61,824 nucleotides of DNA from Acidobacteriota bacterium (GTDB lineage: Bacteria > Acidobacteriota > JAQAZP01), in contig JAQAZP010000049.1 in NCBI GenBank assembly GCA_032127265.1, positions 1 to 61,824 of the forward strand, read 5' to 3'. The notes beneath the pieces were generated by a model. It was not told the DNA's origin. It saw only the letters and a list, made by a program, of their open reading frames with translations, and did no database searches. Below, piece by piece: positions 38,071 through 46,328 of this stretch (positions are counted from its first letter, which is position 1; every line of letters begins with the position of its first letter). The position numbers were made by a program, and so were the translations under genes.

Positions 38071-38637
38071 TCAGTGGTGCCGAAGTATCAGTCGGATCAG
38101 GGGGGCCATCAGGCTCCGTTTCAGCCGATGGGCCATGTGGCCCGGTTTGCGCGGGTTGGCGTCCCGGAAGCCGTTACCGTCCCTGCGGCCCCCGCCCGCC
38201 AGCAGCACCCGCCACTTCCCCAGCCGTCCGGCAAGCGGGTTGACCCAGGTCCAGGGCCGGCGGGAGAGGTGGAGGCTGCGCTCCGGACCGTCGATGGCGG
38301 CCACCCGACCGAGCACCGTGTCGGGAAGGACCCAGGACCAGGCAGGGGAGTTATCCCCCATCTGGCAATACCAGCGGCGGCCGTCACCAGCCGTCCGTGC
38401 CATCAGGAACCGGTGAACCACCACCGTCTCACCCTGCTGCAGGGCAAGGATGTCACCGCAGCAGAGATCCCCGGGGGAGAGCGGATTGATGGTGACCCGG
38501 TGGCCCGGCAGCGCCACCGGATCCATACTGCGCCCCTCCAGCCGGAGGGTGAACTCCCGCTGGCCGTCCCGCCAGAGTTTCAGCACGGCGCTCTTCAGCG
38601 GCGGCCGCAACTCGCGGTTCGCATCATTCTCCCCCAC
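38071..38637 (-). CDS. S24/S26-family (signal-peptidase-like) peptidase without a membrane anchor
   Basis: GRSMDP (catalytic Ser), GDIL, VVHR and MGDN motifs of the Ser-His-type S26 fold. Confidence 0.8.
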   Translation of the reverse strand: MGENDANRELRPPLKSAVLKLWRDGQREFTLRLEGRSMDPVALPGHRVTINPLSPGDLCCGDILALQQGETVVVHRFLMARTAGDGRRWYCQMGDNSPAWSWVLPDTVLGRVAAIDGPERSLHLSRRPWTWVNPLAGRLGKWRVLLAGGGRRDGNGFRDANPRKPGHMAHRLKRSLMAPLIRLILRHH

Positions 38638-38641
38638 CCGT

Positions 38642-41410
38642 TCACTCCCACGATTTCAGCCGAGAGGCCGGGTCCCCCAAAAGGGTGAACATGGAGACCA
38701 TCCCGTTGGTGGCGCCCAGGGCATGGGCCGCCAGCTTGGCCTCGGTGCTGATGACACCCAGGCGGTCCTCCCCCTGAACAAAGATCTGCGAGAAGATTTG
38801 CGGAGACAGCATGTCCTGCTCCCAGGTGTAGCTCAGCCCGCTGGGCGAGAAGCACCCCAGAGCACCGCCAAATTCCGCCGATGCCAGTTCCTCGGCCAGG
38901 CAGTAGTAGAACGGCTGTGAGAAGTAGCCGTTGAGGCAGGTCATGGTGAGCACGAAGGTCAGGGCATCGTCGTTGGTCAGCGAGGCCACGTCGGCGGTCT
39001 GGAAGAGGCCCTCGCCGGCCCAGGAGGTCACTGACCCGTGCCCGTTGTAATGGACAATCATCTCACCGCGGTTGATCGCCCGAACGATGTCCGCGGTGGC
39101 CTCCGCGGTCACCGGGTAAGCGGAAAGGTAGACCCGGTCCGGCTGGATGCCCGGGGGCAGCATGGCGGCCACCGTCTCGTTCAGGTTTTCGAAGACCTGT
39201 TCATTGTCGGCGACAAAAAGTGACCGGCCCGGCGCCGCAGCCGGAGACTGCTCGTGGGCCAGCAGCCGGGTCACCACCCGGTCCGCCATCACCGCGTCAC
39301 TGGCCGGCAGGCGGCCGATATACATCTCGGGCAGCACATCGTCGCCTTCCACGGTGACATACCAGTTGTCGTCCGGTGTAAGGCCAATTTCGCTCAGCGT
39401 CAGGTGTACGGGCACCAGGCTCTGTTTGCCGGTGCCGAAGTAGTCGAGGTAATCGGTGTTGGCATCGCCGAGCAGCAGGATGAAGGCGGGCGCCGGCGGC
39501 GCCCAGTCATGATAGGCACAACGAAGAAACGCCTTCAGCGCCACCGGGTCCGGCAGGCCATGGTTGAACTCATTGTAGATGTCCTCCACCGCCACCGCCA
39601 TGGACCGAAGCCCCTGGTCCCGTCGATACTGGACAAGGGGTTCGGCTGCCGGGAGAAACTCCCGAGGCGTGATCAGGATGTAGTCGGCGCCCTGCCCGCC
39701 CCCCCTCAACCCCGGCGAGGCCCAGCCCTCCACCGCGGACGGATCCCTGAACCGGTCGGGGGTCAGCGCGAAGTATGTGGCGGCACCCGCCACCTTGTCA
39801 CCAAAGGTCGCGGTGTATTGCCCTCCCACCTCGGTGACCCTGACATGGAGCACCCGTTTGACGTCAAAGGGATCGCTGACATCAAGGACGGCCACCAGCG
39901 GTTCGGTGAAGCCATGTACCGCCATGTGCAGCGGCCCTTTTCCCTGGACGGTGAAGCAGAGCTGGTCATCCAGCGCACGAAGCTGTCGGCGGTATTCCAG
40001 TTCGATCCAGTTGAGGTAGATGCTGTCCACCGCCGCGCCGGTGTCGCCAGGGCAATCCACGGTAACCGTGTTCCCCCCAATGGTCAACAGCCCGGTCGGG
40101 ACCTGGAGCTCCTGGGAAACGACCTTGTCGCCGTCCCAGTACTGGTCGCCCACGTCCACACCGTTCAAAAATATCCGGGTGTGGTGATTGGGGTGCGGTG
40201 ACGCGGTTGAGCGGCCCTGGTAGCAGACCCGGAGGGTGCTGTCCCACGCGCCGGGATCAGGATTGTGGATGTCCACCTGGCAATTCTTCACCACCGGTGC
40301 GGTGAGCAGGTCCCAGAACCAGAAGTCCGCTTCCGGAGTCCCCGGTGTGGCCTCCCACAACCGGTGGTTCTCCTCGTAGCGCACGGTTTCCGTTGTTGAG
40401 GTGACCAGAGCGCCCCCACCGGAGGAGCGGCCGTCCCGGGTCCCCATCCTGGCCCCGGCCTCCCCGCCCCAGTACAGCCAGTAGACATTGGCCCCGGTAA
40501 ACCGGCTCTCCACGCCCTGGCCGTAGAAGAAGAGATCCCCCCCGGGCCACGGCGCTTCATGATGGTCATCAGCGACAAAGATCGGCACTTCGCGCCCCTT
40601 GTTGAACAGCTTCAGCGTGGCCGGGTCCAGGGCCTCGATCAGGCCGTGGGCCAGACCGGCGCCCAGCAGGGCCTGACCGTAGTCCATGGCGTAGAGGCCG
40701 TCCTCCTCCACCTCGATGCGCAACGCCCCCTGGAGACAGGAGCCCGGGGTGGGGAGCAGCAGGCCGTGATACGCATCCCGGGAATCGGGATCGGGGGAGG
40801 ATGCCGGGTCTGTTGGCAGAACGAAGCTGGATGGTTGATGATACGAGAGCCGGACCACCAGCCGTGAAGCACAGCGCAGCTGCCCGGACGACGGGTCCCA
40901 CTGGAACGGATGAAAGAGCACCCGGGCCAGGTGGCGGCCGCGCTGAACAGCCGCCGGTTGCACCTCAACCAGTGCCGCGGGATAGATCTGGTCAAGCTGT
41001 CCTGCCTGCTGTTCCTCGAACTCCGGGACGGCGGCCCGATCGGCGTCCTCCACCGTCAGACGCGGAACCGGATAGACGTGCTGGACAGCGTGATGCCGGA
41101 ATTCAGCGTCGAGGATCCGGACGTCCATACCGCCGCCCGGCGGGAGCCCGATGGCGCATCCCAGCACCGGAAGTTCGGGCAGCCCGGCAATGGCCGTCCG
41201 GGCCCAACCGTCCAGCAGCACCCGCTGGCATGGGCCCTGGAGCCCCTGGATTTCTTCGAGCCGGTATGACGGCAGCAGCAGTTCCAGGGTGACGCCCCAC
41301 TGATCCTGCTCCAGAACGGTGAGACCGGGAGGGACGAGGATCGCCGGGTTTACGGTCTGAGCCGAAACCGGAACCGTGATCAGCAGCAGCAACAGCCAGG
41401 TGATTTTCAA
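38642..41410 (-). CDS. Secreted C25 (gingipain/PorU-like) cysteine peptidase with propeptide
   Basis: Signal peptide (VSA-Q), propeptide-like GLPELP, DYILIT, IYNEF, LLLGDA, DNWY, IGRLP, catalytic HYNGHG and TMTC, terminal LLGDP. Confidence 0.88.
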   Translation of the reverse strand: MKITWLLLLLITVPVSAQTVNPAILVPPGLTVLEQDQWGVTLELLLPSYRLEEIQGLQGPCQRVLLDGWARTAIAGLPELPVLGCAIGLPPGGGMDVRILDAEFRHHAVQHVYPVPRLTVEDADRAAVPEFEEQQAGQLDQIYPAALVEVQPAAVQRGRHLARVLFHPFQWDPSSGQLRCASRLVVRLSYHQPSSFVLPTDPASSPDPDSRDAYHGLLLPTPGSCLQGALRIEVEEDGLYAMDYGQALLGAGLAHGLIEALDPATLKLFNKGREVPIFVADDHHEAPWPGGDLFFYGQGVESRFTGANVYWLYWGGEAGARMGTRDGRSSGGGALVTSTTETVRYEENHRLWEATPGTPEADFWFWDLLTAPVVKNCQVDIHNPDPGAWDSTLRVCYQGRSTASPHPNHHTRIFLNGVDVGDQYWDGDKVVSQELQVPTGLLTIGGNTVTVDCPGDTGAAVDSIYLNWIELEYRRQLRALDDQLCFTVQGKGPLHMAVHGFTEPLVAVLDVSDPFDVKRVLHVRVTEVGGQYTATFGDKVAGAATYFALTPDRFRDPSAVEGWASPGLRGGGQGADYILITPREFLPAAEPLVQYRRDQGLRSMAVAVEDIYNEFNHGLPDPVALKAFLRCAYHDWAPPAPAFILLLGDANTDYLDYFGTGKQSLVPVHLTLSEIGLTPDDNWYVTVEGDDVLPEMYIGRLPASDAVMADRVVTRLLAHEQSPAAAPGRSLFVADNEQVFENLNETVAAMLPPGIQPDRVYLSAYPVTAEATADIVRAINRGEMIVHYNGHGSVTSWAGEGLFQTADVASLTNDDALTFVLTMTCLNGYFSQPFYYCLAEELASAEFGGALGCFSPSGLSYTWEQDMLSPQIFSQIFVQGEDRLGVISTEAKLAAHALGATNGMVSMFTLLGDPASRLKSWE

Positions 41411-42552
41411 TTCCCTGTCTCCGCTTCCCCGGTGGCCTCAAGGGCCAGTTTCCTGACCATCGGCACCTCCTCATCAAGACGGCCAACCGTGAGCCTGAAG
41501 CAGGCCGCCTTTGAAAAATGTTCGATCAATTCCTTCAGCAGGCCGGCCGATCCGGCATCCACGCCCTGGCCCGGCGAATCGACCCGCTGTTTCAGCCCGG
41601 GCAGCAGGCCGAATGCCGCCCGGTGGGCCGGCACCGGCTCCAGCACCGGCGCACGCTGGAAATCGGGCCGGGCGGTCTCGGTCACAAAGTTATTGAGCAA
41701 GCAGTCCCGGTGCGTCTCCAGCAGGCCGGCGAGGGCCGCGGCCAGTCCATTCCCTCGTGGATAATCAAGGTGGAACTCGGCCACCCCCGCCTTGGGCCGG
41801 GTCACCACGATTCCGGGGTGCAGCCGGGTCACGTCATCGAGCAGCGGTTCCCAGCCCCGCTCCCGGGTCCCCACAACCAGCCGGCCCACGACTCCGGCCG
41901 TCGGCCCCGGATCGAGAATGACCAGCAAACCGGGCTCCGACGTCTCCTCCCACTTTTTCGTATCGGCAAGTGACGAGGGGTTCATTGGTCTTTTCCCGCC
42001 CTTCATCACGCCCTGGCCGCCCCCGGCCCCCGCCCCTCCCTCCTCGTCAATCACCCAGAGGCTGCGGGGAAAGGGATGAACCCGGCCGCTCCGGCGGTGG
42101 ATGGGGCAGATCTCGTCGGAGAAGAGCGTGAATCCGCTCCCGGCAAGGGCCAGGGCCAGGGTGGTTTTCCCGGTCCCCGGCGGTCCGGCCAGAATCACCG
42201 CCCGCCGGTTGCGCACCACAACCGCCGCGTGCAGCAGCAGGTAGCCCTGGAGGCTGTCGAACAGCGTCTGGGTCACCCACTGCCAGGCATGATGGACCGG
42301 AGTGGGATGCCCGTCGAGGGACTGTTCCCCCACCTGGTCACCGGCGCCGACGGTCCGGCGGAAGTTGAGGCTCGGCCCCCCCGGCCCGTTGAAGCGGGCC
42401 TTGATGCTGAGGTCAGCCTCACCACCAGCGTCCGCTGTGCGGAACAAGGCGTAGTCACGGTCGAACAGCTCCAGCAGCTGCTCCGAATCACTGGCCAGGC
42501 AGAGCGCCGTGTCGAGAATGCGGTAATGGGCCTGGTGCAGCGCCGGGCTCAT
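41407..42552 (-). CDS. HPr kinase-related P-loop protein
   Basis: LLHAAVV..AVILAGPPGTGKTT..LFSDE..PFPR signature of HprK-related kinases. Confidence 0.8.
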   Translation of the reverse strand: MSPALHQAHYRILDTALCLASDSEQLLELFDRDYALFRTADAGGEADLSIKARFNGPGGPSLNFRRTVGAGDQVGEQSLDGHPTPVHHAWQWVTQTLFDSLQGYLLLHAAVVVRNRRAVILAGPPGTGKTTLALALAGSGFTLFSDEICPIHRRSGRVHPFPRSLWVIDEEGGAGAGGGQGVMKGGKRPMNPSSLADTKKWEETSEPGLLVILDPGPTAGVVGRLVVGTRERGWEPLLDDVTRLHPGIVVTRPKAGVAEFHLDYPRGNGLAAALAGLLETHRDCLLNNFVTETARPDFQRAPVLEPVPAHRAAFGLLPGLKQRVDSPGQGVDAGSAGLLKELIEHFSKAACFRLTVGRLDEEVPMVRKLALEATGEAETGN

Positions 42553-43946
42553 GGCGCCCCCCTTCCCGTAGAATGGCTGCAGATTGTTTCACGTCTCAGG
42601 ATGCCGTCGAACGCCTCCTGGTAGGCTTCGCGGCGATAGGAGCAGAAATCGTCCCGGCCCCAGATGGTTCCGCGATGATCCAGGGCCTGGCCCATGCAGC
42701 CGGCCTGGCAGAGGTTTCGCCAGTGGCAGGCGGCGCACTCGGGGATCTGTTGGCGCCGATCGCTCAGCGCCGCGCAGGCCCGGGCCAGGCCGCGGTGATC
42801 CAGACAAGCCTGCAGTCCGTCGTGAAACAGGTTGCCCAACCGGAACTCCTCGTGCATCAGCAGGACACAGGGGTATGCCGAACCGTCCACATCGGCCACC
42901 ATGGTCCGGCCCACGGAACACCAGATCCCATCGGGGGCGATGTCCGGGGGGACTTCCATCAAGAAGCCGCTGAGGCCGCAACTCACGCTCACCGAGCAGC
43001 TTCCGCCGCGCTGCTCGCCGGTCACCAGCCGGTAGAACTCCTCGTGGTCCCGGACCGACACACCGGCGCCGATGCGGTCCCAGTTTCCGGCGGCCCGCCC
43101 CCGGCGGGCCAGGGGCAGAAAGCGCACCAGGGGCACCCCCCGCTGCTCGGCCAGCCTGATGATCCCCGACAACTGATGCAGGTTCTGCTCCATGATGGTC
43201 GCCGAAAAGTTTACCCGCTCCCCCATACCGGCCTGCTGGAGCAGTTCAACGGCCCCCATGGCCGCGGCAAAGCTTCCCGCCTTCCGTATCCCGTCGTGGG
43301 TCGCTTCGTCGGCCCCGTCCACACTGACCTGGACCAGCGCGCCGGTCCCGGAGAGGAACCCGGCCCACCGCTCATCGACCAGCGAGCCGTTGGTCAGCAG
43401 GCGGACACGCACCTTCAGGGCCGCGTGGCTGATCAGATCCCGGGCCCGGGGATGGAGCAGGGGCTCTCCCCCGCTGATGGTCACACCCCGGGCACCGGCC
43501 GCCGCCGCCTCGTCGATCAGCCGGCAGGCCGCCTCCAGGGGCATGTCCGACGCTTCACGCTCTTCGGCCTGGTAGCAGTGGACACAGCGGTAGTTGCAGC
43601 GGTCGGTGATGTGCAGAAAGAGCGACTCCGCCACCGGCGTCCTCCGCGCCGGCCCCTCGGCCCGGGGCGCCAGATACCCACGGCTCTCCAACTCGTCGGC
43701 CACCCGGTCCACATCGCCCCTTGCTTCGATCCGGCCGAGGCCATACCGCTCGGCCAGAGCGTCGGCCGCTTCCCCGCGTCCCGATCCATCGAGCAGCAGA
43801 GTGGCGATTTCGCGGGTGGTGCTGTTGACCACAAGCCAGCGGGGATCATGGCCATGGAGCATGACCACTGGCCCGGAGCCGTCAGGCGGAGGTGTGTCGG
43901 GATAGAAGAACCAGGAGGGACACGATGCTGGGGATTGTCTGCCCAA
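42549..43946 (-). CDS. Radical SAM/SPASM enzyme with an N-terminal PqqD-like RRE
   Basis: RRE-like VNSTTREIA.LL..LAERY..DV..L.SRGYL, CNYRCVHC, SGGEP, and SPASM WC..GSAYPC plus CAAC..CQAGC..C. Confidence 0.92.
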   Translation of the reverse strand: MGRQSPASCPSWFFYPDTPPPDGSGPVVMLHGHDPRWLVVNSTTREIATLLLDGSGRGEAADALAERYGLGRIEARGDVDRVADELESRGYLAPRAEGPARRTPVAESLFLHITDRCNYRCVHCYQAEEREASDMPLEAACRLIDEAAAAGARGVTISGGEPLLHPRARDLISHAALKVRVRLLTNGSLVDERWAGFLSGTGALVQVSVDGADEATHDGIRKAGSFAAAMGAVELLQQAGMGERVNFSATIMEQNLHQLSGIIRLAEQRGVPLVRFLPLARRGRAAGNWDRIGAGVSVRDHEEFYRLVTGEQRGGSCSVSVSCGLSGFLMEVPPDIAPDGIWCSVGRTMVADVDGSAYPCVLLMHEEFRLGNLFHDGLQACLDHRGLARACAALSDRRQQIPECAACHWRNLCQAGCMGQALDHRGTIWGRDDFCSYRREAYQEAFDGILRRETICSHSTGRGAP

Positions 43947-43998
43947 GAGAGATACTACCGTGCTCGGGATTTCGATGGACCGCCCCGGACACCGCGTA

Positions 43999-44172
43999 TC
44001 AAACGATACCGCAGGGAGCGGGACTGCAAGCCTGCGCGGGCCCGACCTGTTCCAGGATTTCCTCGCTGCTGTAGGTTGTGATCAAGGGTGGTTCGTACTG
44101 AACCCGGATTGCGGCGCTGCCCTTGTGGCCCTTGTCCTCCGTTTTCCGGAGTTCCGTTCTCTCCTCGATCAT
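43999..44172 (-). CDS. Putative RiPP precursor peptide (57 aa)
   Basis: GGAG-containing RBS before ATG 44172. Sequence MIEERTELRKTEDKGHKGSAAIRVQYEPPLITTYSSEEILEQVGPAQACSPAPCGIV. First gene after the promoter, ending 52 nt upstream of the rSAM gene. Confidence 0.8.
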   Translation of the reverse strand: MIEERTELRKTEDKGHKGSAAIRVQYEPPLITTYSSEEILEQVGPAQACSPAPCGIV

Positions 44173-44315
44173 CCCTTTCTCCCCTGACGGTCCCCAAGCC
44201 TTGAAGGACCGGGTTGCGGTTGTCCGGGGCAACGCCCCGTCACCATGCCGGAAATCGGCATAGGGCGACCGTATTTCATACACTATCTTATCGGCAGAAT
44301 CATGTGCTGACTGAA

Positions 44316-44344
44316 AATGTACCAACAACCGGCAGGACTGTCAA
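44316..44344 (-). promoter_or_regulatory. Sigma70 promoter of the peptide-modification operon
   Basis: Minus strand TTGACA-17 nt-TACATT with a TGn extension, just downstream of the mdh terminator. Confidence 0.7.
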
Positions 44345-44359
44345 CAACATCGCCCCAAT

Positions 44360-44388
44360 AAAAAGCCCCCGCCGTGAGGCGGGGGCTT
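44360..44388 (-). terminator. Rho-independent terminator of mdh
   Basis: AAGCCCCCGCC-GTGA-GGCGGGGGCTT stem with A5 on plus (U-tract on minus). Confidence 0.88.
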
Positions 44389-44419
44389 GAACAATCAACC
44401 GGTTGCAGCGAGCAGGCTG

Positions 44420-45376
44420 CTACTTGCCCATGGCATCCACTTCGCCGCAGGTCTTTTTCACCGCGTCCACCGAGTGGGCCAGTGCGGCCTTCTCATCGGC
44501 GGTCAGCTTGATCTCGATGATCTTTTCCACGCCGTTCTTGCCGAGAATGGCGGGGACGCCGACGAAGAGCCCATCGACGCCATACTCGCCCTCGAGCAGC
44601 GCGCAGACCGGGACGATCTTCTTCTTGTCGAACATGATCGCCTCGACCATCTCCAGCGCCGACCAGGCCGGGCTGACAAAGGCGGAACCGGAACCGAGCA
44701 GACCCACCACCTCGCCGCCGGCCTTGCGGGTCCGGGTTTCGATCGCTTCCAGCGCCTCGGGCGCGACGAACTCTTCAACCGGAAGGCCGTAGACCCGGCA
44801 GGCGCTGCGGATCGGCACCATGGTGTCGCCGTGGCCGCCCAGCACCACCGCCTCGACGTTTTCCACCGAGACGCCGGCGGCCTCGGCTACGAAATACTTG
44901 TAACGGCCCGAGTCGAGCACACCGGCCATACCGATGATCTTGTTCTTCGGGGTGCCCAGCTGCTTGTACAGACGGTAGACGATGGCGTCCAGGGGGTTGG
45001 CCACGGAGATGATGATGGCCTTGGGGCAGTACTTTTTGATCCCCTCGGCCACCTTGTCGGTGATGCCGAGGTTGATCGCCAGCAGCTCTTCGCGGCTGGG
45101 GAAGGTGCCGTCGGGCCGCACGGTGCGCGGCACGCCCGCGGTGTTGATCACGAAGTCGGACCCTTCGAGAACCTCGAAGGTCTGGCTGGCCTGGAAGTTG
45201 ACGTCACGACTGATGGTCGGCATCCCCTCGGCGATGTCGAGGCACTTGCCCTTTGCCAGGTTCGGGGGCTTGGGATCCACCAGGCCAACGTTGCGCGCGA
45301 GGCCGCGCGAGACGATTTCCGATACCAGGACGCCGCCGATCTGGCCGCCGCCCACGAGTCCGATCTTGTTGACCAT
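44420..45376 (-). CDS. mdh: LDH-like malate dehydrogenase (mobile-loop insertion; substrate unverified)
   Basis: GGGQIG, TAGVPR, ANPLDA, GMAGVLDSGR, GGHGDTMVP and GGEVV..GSA. AAGGAG RBS. Confidence 0.82.
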   Translation of the reverse strand: MVNKIGLVGGGQIGGVLVSEIVSRGLARNVGLVDPKPPNLAKGKCLDIAEGMPTISRDVNFQASQTFEVLEGSDFVINTAGVPRTVRPDGTFPSREELLAINLGITDKVAEGIKKYCPKAIIISVANPLDAIVYRLYKQLGTPKNKIIGMAGVLDSGRYKYFVAEAAGVSVENVEAVVLGGHGDTMVPIRSACRVYGLPVEEFVAPEALEAIETRTRKAGGEVVGLLGSGSAFVSPAWSALEMVEAIMFDKKKIVPVCALLEGEYGVDGLFVGVPAILGKNGVEKIIEIKLTADEKAALAHSVDAVKKTCGEVDAMGK

Positions 45377-45629
45377 CGACATTCTCCTTGCTGTGATAAT
45401 ACCTTCCGCTCGGGACCACAACAGGCGGACAAAGGGTTTTGCCCACCAGTCTCTCCAAAAATATTCGCCGATATTACCACCATGGGACAGGTTAGGCCAG
45501 TGTATTTACCGTTGCTGGTCCGATTAGGCCTTTTTTTTCTCCAGGGGCCCTTTGCCGCCCCGGTTGACCGGTGGTCCGGACCGTGTTTCAATGGGTAAAA
45601 GGCTCTTTTCACAACCGGGGGAGGGACTG

Positions 45630-46328
45630 ATGGATACCATCGACATACACTACCGTTTCAACCTCGGTGGCGGGGCCCTGGAGGTCTTCGACCTCAAGTT
45701 CCGCCCGCAGGACATGGAATTGCTGGAACCCGTACCGAAAACCGTTCCGTCCTGGGCCGGCCTCGAGTTCCACCAGTGCCCGCACTGCCCGCTGACCCGG
45801 TCGGAGCAGCCGCACTGCCCGCTGGCCGTCCGGCTGGTGGACGTGATTCAGCGGTTCGACCACATCATTTCCTTTGACACCATTCGCCTGGACGTCACCA
45901 CCAGGGAACGGTTCATCTCCCAGGACACCACGGCCCAGCGGGGTGTCAGTTCACTGCTCGGCCTGCTCATCGCCACGTCTGGCTGCCCGCATACCCGTTT
46001 TCTCCGCCCCATGGCCCGTCACCACCTGCCCTTTGCCAGCTACGAGGAGACTCTCTACCGGGCGGCCTCCACCTATGCCCTGGCCCAGTATTTCAGGACC
46101 AGGGCGGGCCTCGACCCGGACACCGGGATGGAGGGCCTGCTCGGTCTCTATGAATCGGTCTGCCGGATCAATCTCTCGGTGGTGCAGCGGGTGCGCGAGG
46201 CCACCCAGGCCGACTCGGCGGTCAACGCCCTGGTGATCCTGGACCTCTTTGCCCAGATGCTGCCGGAGAGCATGGAAGAGGAATTGGAAAAGCTGCAGGG
46301 CCTGTTTGCGGCCTACGTTGAAGCCTGA
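45630..46328 (+). CDS. Conserved hypothetical protein (DUF6901-like, Cys motifs)
   Basis: GGAGG RBS; LEFHQCPHCPL..CP, SGCP..L.PMAR.HLPFA..ET.YR and NALVILD pattern. Confidence 0.65.
   Translation: MDTIDIHYRFNLGGGALEVFDLKFRPQDMELLEPVPKTVPSWAGLEFHQCPHCPLTRSEQPHCPLAVRLVDVIQRFDHIISFDTIRLDVTTRERFISQDTTAQRGVSSLLGLLIATSGCPHTRFLRPMARHHLPFASYEETLYRAASTYALAQYFRTRAGLDPDTGMEGLLGLYESVCRINLSVVQRVREATQADSAVNALVILDLFAQMLPESMEEELEKLQGLFAAYVEA

Follow-up and report, generated by a model that had tools for sequence, protein, structure and literature searches.

Comparison with described systems

Radical S-adenosylmethionine (rSAM) enzymes with a SPASM domain, equipped with a RiPP recognition element (RRE), serve several known groups of peptides that ribosomes synthesize and that are then modified post-translationally (RiPPs), among them sactipeptides, ranthipeptides (CteA/CteB) and streptide (SuiA/SuiB). 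The gene considered here encodes a peptide of 57 amino acids (aa) and lies directly upstream of a gene for such an enzyme, on the minus strand of a contig from an Acidobacteriota bacterium (JAQAZP010000049.1 of assembly GCA_032127265.1, positions 1 to 61,824; this whole stretch of 61,824 nt is referred to below as the window). It probably encodes a precursor from a widespread, unnamed family in which a variable spacer precedes an RRE-bound leader and a core that begins with Cys, the whole being handled by a proposed pathway of an rSAM enzyme, a kinase, an S26 peptidase and a C25 peptidase. Precursors of rSAM/SPASM RiPPs are an already known kind of gene; the present family is large and unnamed, and its set of enzymes is unusual.

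The window resembles the known rSAM/SPASM systems in having a small precursor directly upstream of an rSAM enzyme with a PqqD/RRE domain, a full set of SPASM Cys residues, a conserved leader followed by a variable and Cys-rich core, and a leader strand that is modelled on the RRE. It differs from them in that scores stay below the curated family cut-offs, conservation in the core centres on one Cys (core position 1), and there is no transporter. To our knowledge, an HprK-like kinase, a Sec11-type S26 peptidase and a PorU-like C25 peptidase are not partners in known sactipeptide or ranthipeptide clusters.

Phosphorylated lasso peptide clusters (Bsf and the paeninodin type) share other elements with the locus (PMC10368454). 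In the cluster BsfA/BsfK/BsfB1/BsfN described there, a kinase acts on a precursor with a YxxPxL-type leader, the RRE accelerates the reaction, and a nucleotidyltransferase is an accessory. A YxxPx[LI] leader motif, a PqqD-type RRE as its predicted reader, an enzyme like HPr kinase and a nucleotidyltransferase are thus common to both, whereas the register of the motif (-23 here versus -17) and the presence of an rSAM enzyme and an S26 peptidase in place of the cyclase and B2 protease set the two apart. The HPr-rel-A families (TIGR04352/TIGR04353) and the SynChlorMet set (ScmC/D/E/F) likewise bring together PqqD and an HprK-like protein, an rSAM/SPASM enzyme being present or not. The stand-alone PqqD protein of one related locus (L035) has TIGR04353 as its best family (27.5 bits versus a cut-off of 35), and ScmC, ScmD and ScmE match weakly; with scores below the respective cut-offs (200, 35, 125 and 400), the present system is a relative of HPr-rel-A and not a member of it. 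A literature search found no paper on either HPr-rel-A or SynChlorMet, so that they supply names here rather than mechanisms.

The two peptidases also have well-known counterparts. The C25 peptidase has PorU, the type IX sortase, as its best relative, retains the His/Cys motifs, and has likely cargo proteins that share a C-terminal domain of ~85 aa. It differs in scoring below 420 against the PorU model, in a cargo domain that is not Por_Secre_tail, and in its organisms (Acidobacteriota, Desulfobacterota-like bacteria, Planctomycetota and Myxococcota); other type IX genes were not searched for. No type IX system is known to use an rSAM-matured peptide. The S26 peptidase shares with Sec11/SipW signal peptidases (S26B) the Ser of G-x-S-M-x-P, the His of V-H-R, the G-D-N motif, the S24/S26 fold and a substrate site (G-P-A-x-A) that fits their rule, but it is an anchorless, probably cytoplasmic enzyme below the TIGR02228 cut-off, and its substrate has no hydrophobic signal sequence. 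The literature search returned nothing on a peptide/rSAM/kinase/C25/S26 system as a whole, and the supplementary tables of mining papers may list the family as an unnamed cluster.

The peptide gene

The gene comprises the following elements, with residues numbered from Met1.

43999-44172, minus strand: coding sequence of the precursor peptide, 57 aa, stop codon counted in (frame, homologues, codon-position test)
44173-44184, minus strand: purine-rich ribosome-binding stretch, GGGGAGAAAGGG, abutting the ATG (read from the sequence)
44316-44344, minus strand: sigma-70-like promoter reading TTGACA-17 nt-TACATT, its -10 hexamer preceded by TG (10 of 12 matches)
44098-44172, minus strand: residues 1-25, charged and variable N-terminal region with Met1 as its sole conserved column
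44080-44097, minus strand: Y26-E-P-P29-L-I31, recognition motif Y-x-x-P-x-[IV] (conservation, complex model)
44029-44043, minus strand: G44-P45-A46-Q47-A48, end of the leader, with a proposed S26-type cleavage after A48 (conservation; the cleavage is putative)
44002-44028, minus strand: core C49-S-P-A-P-C54-G-I-V57 (conservation of the leading Cys, complex model)

From the ATG at 44172 to the TGA at 44001-43999, the 57 codons read MIEERTELRKTEDKGHKGSAAIRVQYEPPLITTYSSEEILEQVGPAQACSPAPCGIV. An earlier note on this DNA, made from the letters alone, had described an open reading frame (ORF) of this length with a ribosome-binding site inside a longer call, and this is what is present: a mechanical ORF listing lengthens the same frame to a TTG at 44328 (109 aa), homologues start at a Met equivalent to the ATG at 44172, and the 57-aa form is present in public record P0266. 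A first protein search yielded 16 homologues of 50-58 aa, related loci numbered 18 in species genomes (back-translated scan) and 57 in metagenomes, and a profile search of 1.84 billion representatives (clusters at 50% identity) returned 488 representative clusters at E<=1e-3, of which 68 reach <=1e-10. Across 53 distinct blocks of 75 nt spanning Y26-S50, the mean pairwise difference at codon positions 1/2/3 is 0.196/0.163/0.600, and the invariant residues G44, P29, P45 and A46 each use all four synonymous codons. Because the differences are concentrated at third codon positions, the minus-strand frame is under purifying selection, and on this comparative evidence the 57-aa ORF is confirmed as a genuine coding gene.

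The probability that the ORF is instead a chance product of GC-rich DNA, with no gene at all, is negligible. Spurious ORFs are common in such DNA and long antisense ORFs overlap the region, but the conservation is specific to one frame, homologues number in the hundreds, and a ribosome-binding site and a promoter are present; the profile search and the codon-position test refute this reading. One of these, an ORF of 502 aa at 42573-44081 on the plus strand, lies antisense to both the rSAM gene and the peptide. Like the many other long wrong-frame ORFs, it results from the ~66% G+C content; none of them has family matches, and the codon-position test speaks for the frame on the minus strand.

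The predicted promoter is a consensus match only, of a kind seen once against 0.1 expected in shuffled sequences. Upstream, the malate dehydrogenase gene (mdh) ends in a terminator hairpin at 44388-44363, and from this hairpin together with the promoter at 44344-44316 it follows that the peptide gene would open its own transcription unit. An Rfam scan of 43900-44450 found no family at the gathering score and only weak matches, which fall on the mdh terminator hairpin. Past mdh, a divergent gene at 45552-46328 on the plus strand encodes a DUF6901 protein (Pfam, 239 bits), for which no link to the cassette was seen at other loci.

Leader and core

The anatomy of the family was read from its best 150 profile-search representatives, 140 of which match the pattern of an aromatic-x-x-P-x-[IVLM] motif, 12 residues and G-P-A-x-x; the fractions out of 140 given below refer to these. 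The N-terminal ~22 residues are charged and unconserved. The motif that follows carries Y in 134/140, P in 140/140 and I or V in 135/140, the spacing from [IV] to GPA is 12 residues without exception (140/140), and the G, P and A of GPA are each present in all 140, so that residues 26-48 form a rigid leader of 23 residues. Position -2 is occupied by Q, L, H, M or K, and position -1 by A (105/140) or T (31/140). Within the leader, position 35 is S or T in 111/140, the chief alternative being Asp. An alignment of 33 members gives the same picture, with Y26, P29, G44, P45, A46 and C49 invariant and I31 being I or V. The conservation of YxxP and of the EE.L..GPAxA block that the earlier note had predicted is therefore found in the family, as is the general organization of a precursor-type peptide with a conserved leader and a variable core in a large family. 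Members occur in metagenome-assembled genomes of Acidobacteriota, Desulfobacterota-like bacteria, Planctomycetota and Myxococcota, and neither Pfam nor NCBIfam holds a model that matches the peptide.

The core begins with Cys in 132/140, followed by S or T in 111 of these 132. Beyond these two residues it varies in both sequence and length (4-45 residues, median 11), and the expectation that the core would be conserved as CSP.C is not borne out. With its conserved leader and variable core, the family shows the pattern of a RiPP precursor with the break before C49. The earlier proposal that the core begins at C49 agrees with this pattern, with the G-P-A-x-A site and with the S26-type peptidase encoded in the operon; the site fits that of type I signal peptidases, which have helix breakers at -5/-4 and small residues at -3/-1. 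The same proposal held that two Cys would be available for thioethers, and here only the first half stands: the leading Cys is near-universal, but the equivalent of C54 is absent from 6 of the 33 aligned members, and 46 of the 132 Cys-initiated cores have no additional Cys, compared with 86/132 that do. Because the second Cys is so often missing, two thioethers cannot define the chemistry of the family.

The motif had also been called lasso-type. A Y-x-x-P-x-[IL] motif is indeed shared with lasso precursors, and an HprK-like kinase, PqqD and PF14907 proteins occur in phosphorylated lasso clusters (PMC10368454). However, the conserved positions lie at -23/-20/-18 in 140/140 members, versus -17/-14/-12 in lasso precursors (PMC10368454), and there is no Thr/Ile(-2) pattern. 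Neither a cyclase (Asn-synthetase-like) nor a B2 protease is found among the five cassette genes, mdh and the pyruvate:ferredoxin oxidoreductase (PFOR) gene on the other side, and the core in the window contains no Asp or Glu from which an isopeptide ring could be made. Given the different register and the absence of both cyclase and B2 protease, this is not a lasso system, and the idea of a lasso precursor carries hardly any weight.

The leader also occurs in other company. In a series of metagenomic loci (L059-L076), a leader of the form Y-x-K/P-P-x-I-T-T-Y-S-E-E-E-I-L-E-L-I-G-P-A-x-T is fused to two unrelated types of core, one His-rich (HEPHGHAWGWHRHRH-like) and one free of Cys and rich in Gly, Asn, Pro and His (G-S-D-F-P-G-N-G-x-H-x-G-W...G-N-P-H). 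These loci are without the cassette, and in some of them (L065, L075) genes for B12-binding rSAM enzymes are close by; the leader may serve several maturation systems.

The rSAM enzyme and leader docking

The enzyme encoded directly downstream of the peptide is the following.

42549-43946, minus strand: radical-SAM/SPASM enzyme that carries a PqqD (RRE) domain at its N-terminus (Pfam; start uncertain)

Its Pfam scores are 84.8 bits for Radical_SAM, 29.7 for PqqD (cut-off 23.4) and 23.2 for SPASM (cut-off 21.5). The start is ambiguous between a TTG at 43946 and the ATG at 43862 of the public call (437 aa), a Met 28 codons downstream. The additional N-terminal stretch contains an [FL]-x-Y-P motif that is kept in several phyla, and this conservation speaks for the longer form or for some other start upstream. 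The CX3CX2C motif (C117, C121, C124) and seven SPASM Cys (C343, C360, C404, C407, C413, C417, C435) are invariant in 91 sequences.

The whole rSAM enzyme (91-sequence alignment) and the peptide (33 sequences), both with alignments made for this analysis, were modelled as a complex in three runs with three controls. The ipSAE values were 0.83, 0.71 and 0.71 (median 0.71), compared with 0.00 for the best control, with a contact agreement of at least 49% and a partner pLDDT of at least 50. The same mark was reached by 58/80 solved complexes and 2/110 mismatched pairs, counts that hold only roughly with alignments supplied in this way. In the model, peptide residues 23-34 contact residues 38-47, 67-70 and 78-86 of the enzyme, which belong to the PqqD domain, the tightest pairs being formed by P29, L30, I31 and Y26. 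Residues 42-50 and 55-56 contact enzyme residues 108, 153-156, 180-182, 275, 309-333, 342 and 445-453, parts that include the surroundings of the GGE motif, R275, the loop from C323 to C343, and the helix at the C-terminus; A48-C49-S50 is placed in the catalytic barrel, against the enzyme core and the SPASM loop. The structure check suggested in the earlier note thus places the expected part of the leader on the PqqD/RRE domain, and the model supports docking of the leader on this domain of the neighbouring rSAM enzyme.

Which reaction would follow is less directly legible, as the enzyme falls below every NCBIfam equivalog cut-off. The top match is the mycofactocin maturase MftC (TIGR03962; 126.8 bits versus 265), and lower scores include those for StsB (96 versus 625), PapB (79.6 versus 340) and AlbA (68.6 versus 850). 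The MftC match and the presence of an RRE, as well as a close subfamily of peptides that ends in C-G-I-[FV], reminiscent of the C-terminus of the mycofactocin precursor, could be taken to mean that the peptide is consumed for a small redox cofactor made from its C-terminal residues, in the manner of mycofactocin or pyrroloquinoline quinone (PQQ). Such a role is very improbable: 126.8 is far under the cut-off, the C-terminus is variable and has no conserved terminal Tyr or Val-Tyr, no partner genes of the mycofactocin type were seen in the cassette, and the hypervariability of the core argues against a single cofactor.

A different suggestion comes from the closest full-length solved relative, an anaerobic sulfatase-maturating enzyme (anSME; 4k37, E 8.4e-13, aligned over 114-449). 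Under an anSME-like oxidase, C49 would be converted to formylglycine within C-S-P-x-P, which resembles the sulfatase motif C-x-P-x-R, and the enzyme would not be a thioether synthase. A C323-G-x-x-G stretch resembles the anSME stretch with the first Cys of the auxiliary clusters in the region of the printed alignment, C323 is present in at least 90% of the 91 sequences and would leave no open iron site, and only one Cys of the core is near-universal. The score against the anSME family (TIGR03942), however, is 91.3 versus a cut-off of 349.45 and lies under that of MftC, C-[ST]-P-x-P occurs in only 41 of the 132 Cys-initiated cores with Arg at +4 in none of those shown, and the additional Cys in 86/132 cores suits crosslinks. 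Formylglycine formation is accordingly an unlikely outcome, if one to be taken seriously beside the thioether.

The partner enzymes and their linkage

Downstream of the rSAM gene, three further genes complete the operon.

41407-42552, minus strand: HprK/PEPCK-fold P-loop kinase-like protein, 381 aa (4-nt overlap of its start with the end of the rSAM gene)
38642-41410, minus strand: secreted C25-type peptidase, gingipain/PorU-like, that begins with a signal-peptide-like stretch and contains a propeptide domain, 922 aa (Pfam)
38071-38637, minus strand: S24/S26-fold serine peptidase of the Sec11/SipW type without an N-terminal membrane anchor, 188 aa (motifs, fold)

The order on the minus strand is therefore peptide, rSAM, kinase, C25 and S26, with overlaps of 4 nt at the rSAM-kinase and kinase-C25 boundaries and a gap of 4 nt between C25 and S26. 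The gene past S26 is the convergent PFOR gene, so the cassette consists of five genes and does not include a transporter.

The kinase has TIGR04352 ('HprK-related kinase A') as its best family (69.9 bits, below the cut-off of 200) and a conserved core of H-A...G-x-G-K-[ST]-T...S-D-[DE]...P-F-P-R. The S26-like protein has invariant G-x-S-M-x-P, H-R and G-D-N motifs, with S37, H75 and D95 invariant; it reaches 23.7 bits against TIGR02228 (below 51.85), and the Peptidase_S24 cut-off is passed by 4/11 homologues, the copy in the window scoring 15.9. Searches of the PDB by sequence gave only P-loop matches for the kinase and no match for the S26-like protein, and because these searches were uninformative both folds were modelled. 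The kinase model (pLDDT 80.6) resembles PEPCK (Foldseek E 8e-6) and HprK/P (E 1.7e-4), and the S26-like model (pLDDT 81.1) resembles the LexA C-domain, human SEC11, SipA and SpsB. A hydrophobic segment was looked for at the N-terminus of the S26-like protein and none was found; lacking this anchor, its catalytic domain is probably cytoplasmic. The C25 protein scores 269.7 bits for Peptidase_C25 and 45.2 for Propeptide_C25, and 222.1 bits against the PorU model NF033707 (below the cut-off of 420). Its top PDB relative is PorU (6za2, E 1.1e-15), with gingipains next, and its NGHGS and TMTCLNG stretches align to the gingipain/PorU His/Cys motifs with the dyad retained, the catalytic residues presumably being those within the two motifs.

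The cassette recurs across phyla, and homologous peptides lie beside homologous rSAM genes in many genomes, as the earlier note had anticipated. Among the 75 related loci, at least one cassette gene is present in 30 and all four are present in 10, counted in the DNA fetched, in which many contigs are short. Gene order is shuffled at some of them (L009, L010, L011, L018, L035), a stand-alone PqqD occurs in L004, L007, L010, L011 and L035, and PF14907 nucleotidyltransferases occur in L004, L008, L015 and L017. The linkage can also be followed at the level of genomes. In the phylum of the window, 19 of 301 genomes contain the peptide, and a full-length kinase homologue is found in 18/19 peptide-positive versus 2/282 peptide-negative genomes, counts that are descriptive because kin genomes are not independent. 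The sole peptide-positive genome without a kinase homologue (G007) has a remnant-like copy of the peptide. In a second phylum, the peptide is found in 13/301 genomes, in as many as 9 copies per genome.

Some Acidobacteriota loci (L003, L012, L025, L039) present a cassette-free context in which an S8 subtilase bearing FG-GAP repeats is encoded downstream of the peptide, with a ClpB-like double-AAA protein beside the peptide in L003, L012 and L039 and an M1 peptidase in L003. At L012 (304-3408; also L039, and G007, which belongs to the genus of the window), a frame of 1034 aa connects the end of a WET domain (described below) with the peptide's second half (SSEEILEQVGPAQACSPAPCAIF), the YxxPxI part being missing, and continues stop-free through a spacer into the FG-GAP S8 subtilase. 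The related L003 has an intact peptide that stands apart from this S8 gene, upstream of it. Judging from its sequence, the L012/G007 copy looks decayed or recombined.

A link to surface proteins

The genomic neighbourhood of the family also includes a recurring domain of ~85 aa near the C-terminus of secreted proteins, beta-rich and recognizable by W-x-T-x-S-E...G-F...W-R...Y-Y-Y-x-L-E-D-I, here called 'WET'. A WET-domain ORF lies at most 600 nt upstream on the same strand of 30/76 peptide copies; roughly two thirds of them stem from a small number of metagenome samples and lack independence, and the adjacency is also found in six genomes of the phylum (G211, G138, G116, G263, G080 and G089). 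The domain is encoded in 18/19 peptide-positive and 61/282 peptide-negative genomes, one of the 61 being the unpublished G151. It has no Pfam or NCBIfam model, and Por_Secre_tail of Pfam is matched by 0/26 domains at E<=1; a likeness to Por_Secre_tail is a language-model lead only (0.86), which is not counted as evidence, and the other hits are to unnamed clusters. In the window's own genome, three WET-domain ORFs lie on other contigs, none adjoining the peptide, and in 2/3 of them the domain is at the extreme C-terminus of a secreted-looking protein.

The closest connection is seen in fusions. Three proteins (P0193, P0225, P0237), found on several contigs, consist of a signal peptide, a passenger, the WET domain, a hydrophobic helix, a basic stretch, and then the full leader and core. 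One genome (G484) encodes three WET-leader-core fusions and, immediately upstream of rSAM, kinase and C25 genes, a free-standing peptide whose core is identical. By predicted topology, the tail of the fusions lies in the cytoplasm, where it would be within reach of the rSAM enzyme, the kinase and the anchorless S26 peptidase.

Several further features were noted among the WET proteins. The region after the domain contains one dockerin-like D-x-N-G-D-G-x-V-[DN]-x-x-D motif in many of them and, in others (including G484 loci L082-L084), a C-G motif, a hydrophobic helix and a basic tail that resemble a classical C-terminal sorting signal; these post-WET motifs are found at L028-L057 (mostly one metagenome), L011, L014, L017, L036, L037, L050 and L058. 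At L085 (4300-4480; G484:C120), ~80 nt around six consecutive G are shared by a WET ORF and the peptide frame; either a fusion gene with a frameshift or a pair of overlapping genes may account for this. An ORF considered as a divergent kinase (L004:1568-2608) aligned poorly with the kinases and proved to encode a WET-domain protein.

These observations allow the peptide to be seen as a detached form of the cytoplasmic C-terminal tail of membrane-anchored WET proteins. The rSAM enzyme, the kinase and the S26 peptidase would modify and clip the tail inside the cell, the PorU-like C25 peptidase would process the same proteins outside, and the whole would be a pathway of protein sorting, attachment or signalling instead of one for a natural product. 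Recognition of the leader is common to this reading and to that of a RiPP precursor, and the difference concerns the purpose of the product. The adjacencies, including those in the six phylum genomes, the co-occurrence of domain and peptide, the fusions, the shared core in G484, the match of C25 to a type IX sortase and the C-terminal position of two of the three domains in the window's genome all speak for it. On the other hand, no WET gene adjoins the peptide in the window or in its closest relatives (L002, L020, L022), the domain is far commoner than the peptide (79 versus 19 of 301 genomes), most of the adjacencies are not independent, the fusions belong to one lineage (3 of the 150 best representatives, and none in the phylum sample except for the odd G007 locus), and the domain matches no curated model, its likeness to type IX C-terminal domains being the language-model lead already mentioned. 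A tail module of this kind is possible, though doubtful.

A stronger form of this reading is more speculative still, and we consider it unlikely. Here, the peptide would be the handle of an unrecognised sorting or surface-attachment system, in which the rSAM enzyme and the kinase mark a leader-guided, Cys-initiated segment, either free or as the cytoplasmic tail of a cargo protein, the cytoplasmic S26 peptidase exposes the Cys as the N-terminus, and C25 handles the WET cargo outside the membrane as a transpeptidase. Possibly, C25 might join the cargo to the matured peptide.

Proposed maturation pathway

Under the favoured reading of a RiPP precursor, residues 1-25 would act as a variable charged spacer, 26-48 as the rigid leader and 49-57 as the core, with Y-x-x-P-x-[IV] bound as a strand by the PqqD/RRE domain of the rSAM enzyme and followed by the acidic helix SEEILEQ and the G-P-A-x-A junction. 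Docking of the leader on the RRE would feed A48-C49-S50 into the rSAM barrel, where Cys-directed radical chemistry would take place on the core. The most likely product would be a thioether from C49 (and from C54 where present) to the carbon of another residue, which fits because many cores are multi-Cys; anSME-like oxidation of C49 is the serious alternative at this step. The HprK-like kinase would then phosphorylate a conserved Ser/Thr, S/T35 or S/T50, the residue in the leader being as good a candidate phosphosite as S50. Cleavage after A-x-A by the cytoplasmic Sec11-type S26 peptidase would release a core with an N-terminal Cys. The product would finally work at the cell envelope, alongside the PorU-like C25 peptidase and that enzyme's likely cargo, and would not be a free antibiotic; the link to WET proteins and the PorU-like character of C25 suggest that it works together with envelope proteins. 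The C25 and S26 peptidases and the connection with surface proteins go beyond what the earlier note had contained.

Several observations weigh against this scheme. The leading Cys is absent from 8/140 cores, and together with the 46/132 cores that have a single Cys this means that one chemistry may not fit all members. As no curated equivalog cut-off is reached, the reaction of the rSAM enzyme is not readable from homology. Solved complexes of leader and RRE exist (CteB, SuiB), and a favourable complex model may therefore reflect likeness to them and is no proof. There is no exporter within the five-gene cassette, though C25 has a signal peptide, and the fusion of the peptide to membrane proteins fits a free, diffusible product poorly. 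Finally, 45/75 loci have no cassette gene in the DNA fetched, several of the contigs being short.

Significance

The set of enzymes is unusual in combining a soluble Sec11-type peptidase as the apparent leader peptidase with an HprK-fold kinase and a secreted PorU-like cysteine peptidase, and the combination of a rigid leader with a hypervariable, Cys-initiated core provides a scaffold for finding new rSAM chemistry. The links through neighbouring genes and fusions suggest that RiPP machinery may modify protein tails or anchor proteins, beyond making free peptides. If the peptide were the handle of a sorting or attachment system, there would be a pathway resembling that of the type IX sortase outside the Bacteroidota, and it would rely on RiPP-style chemistry.

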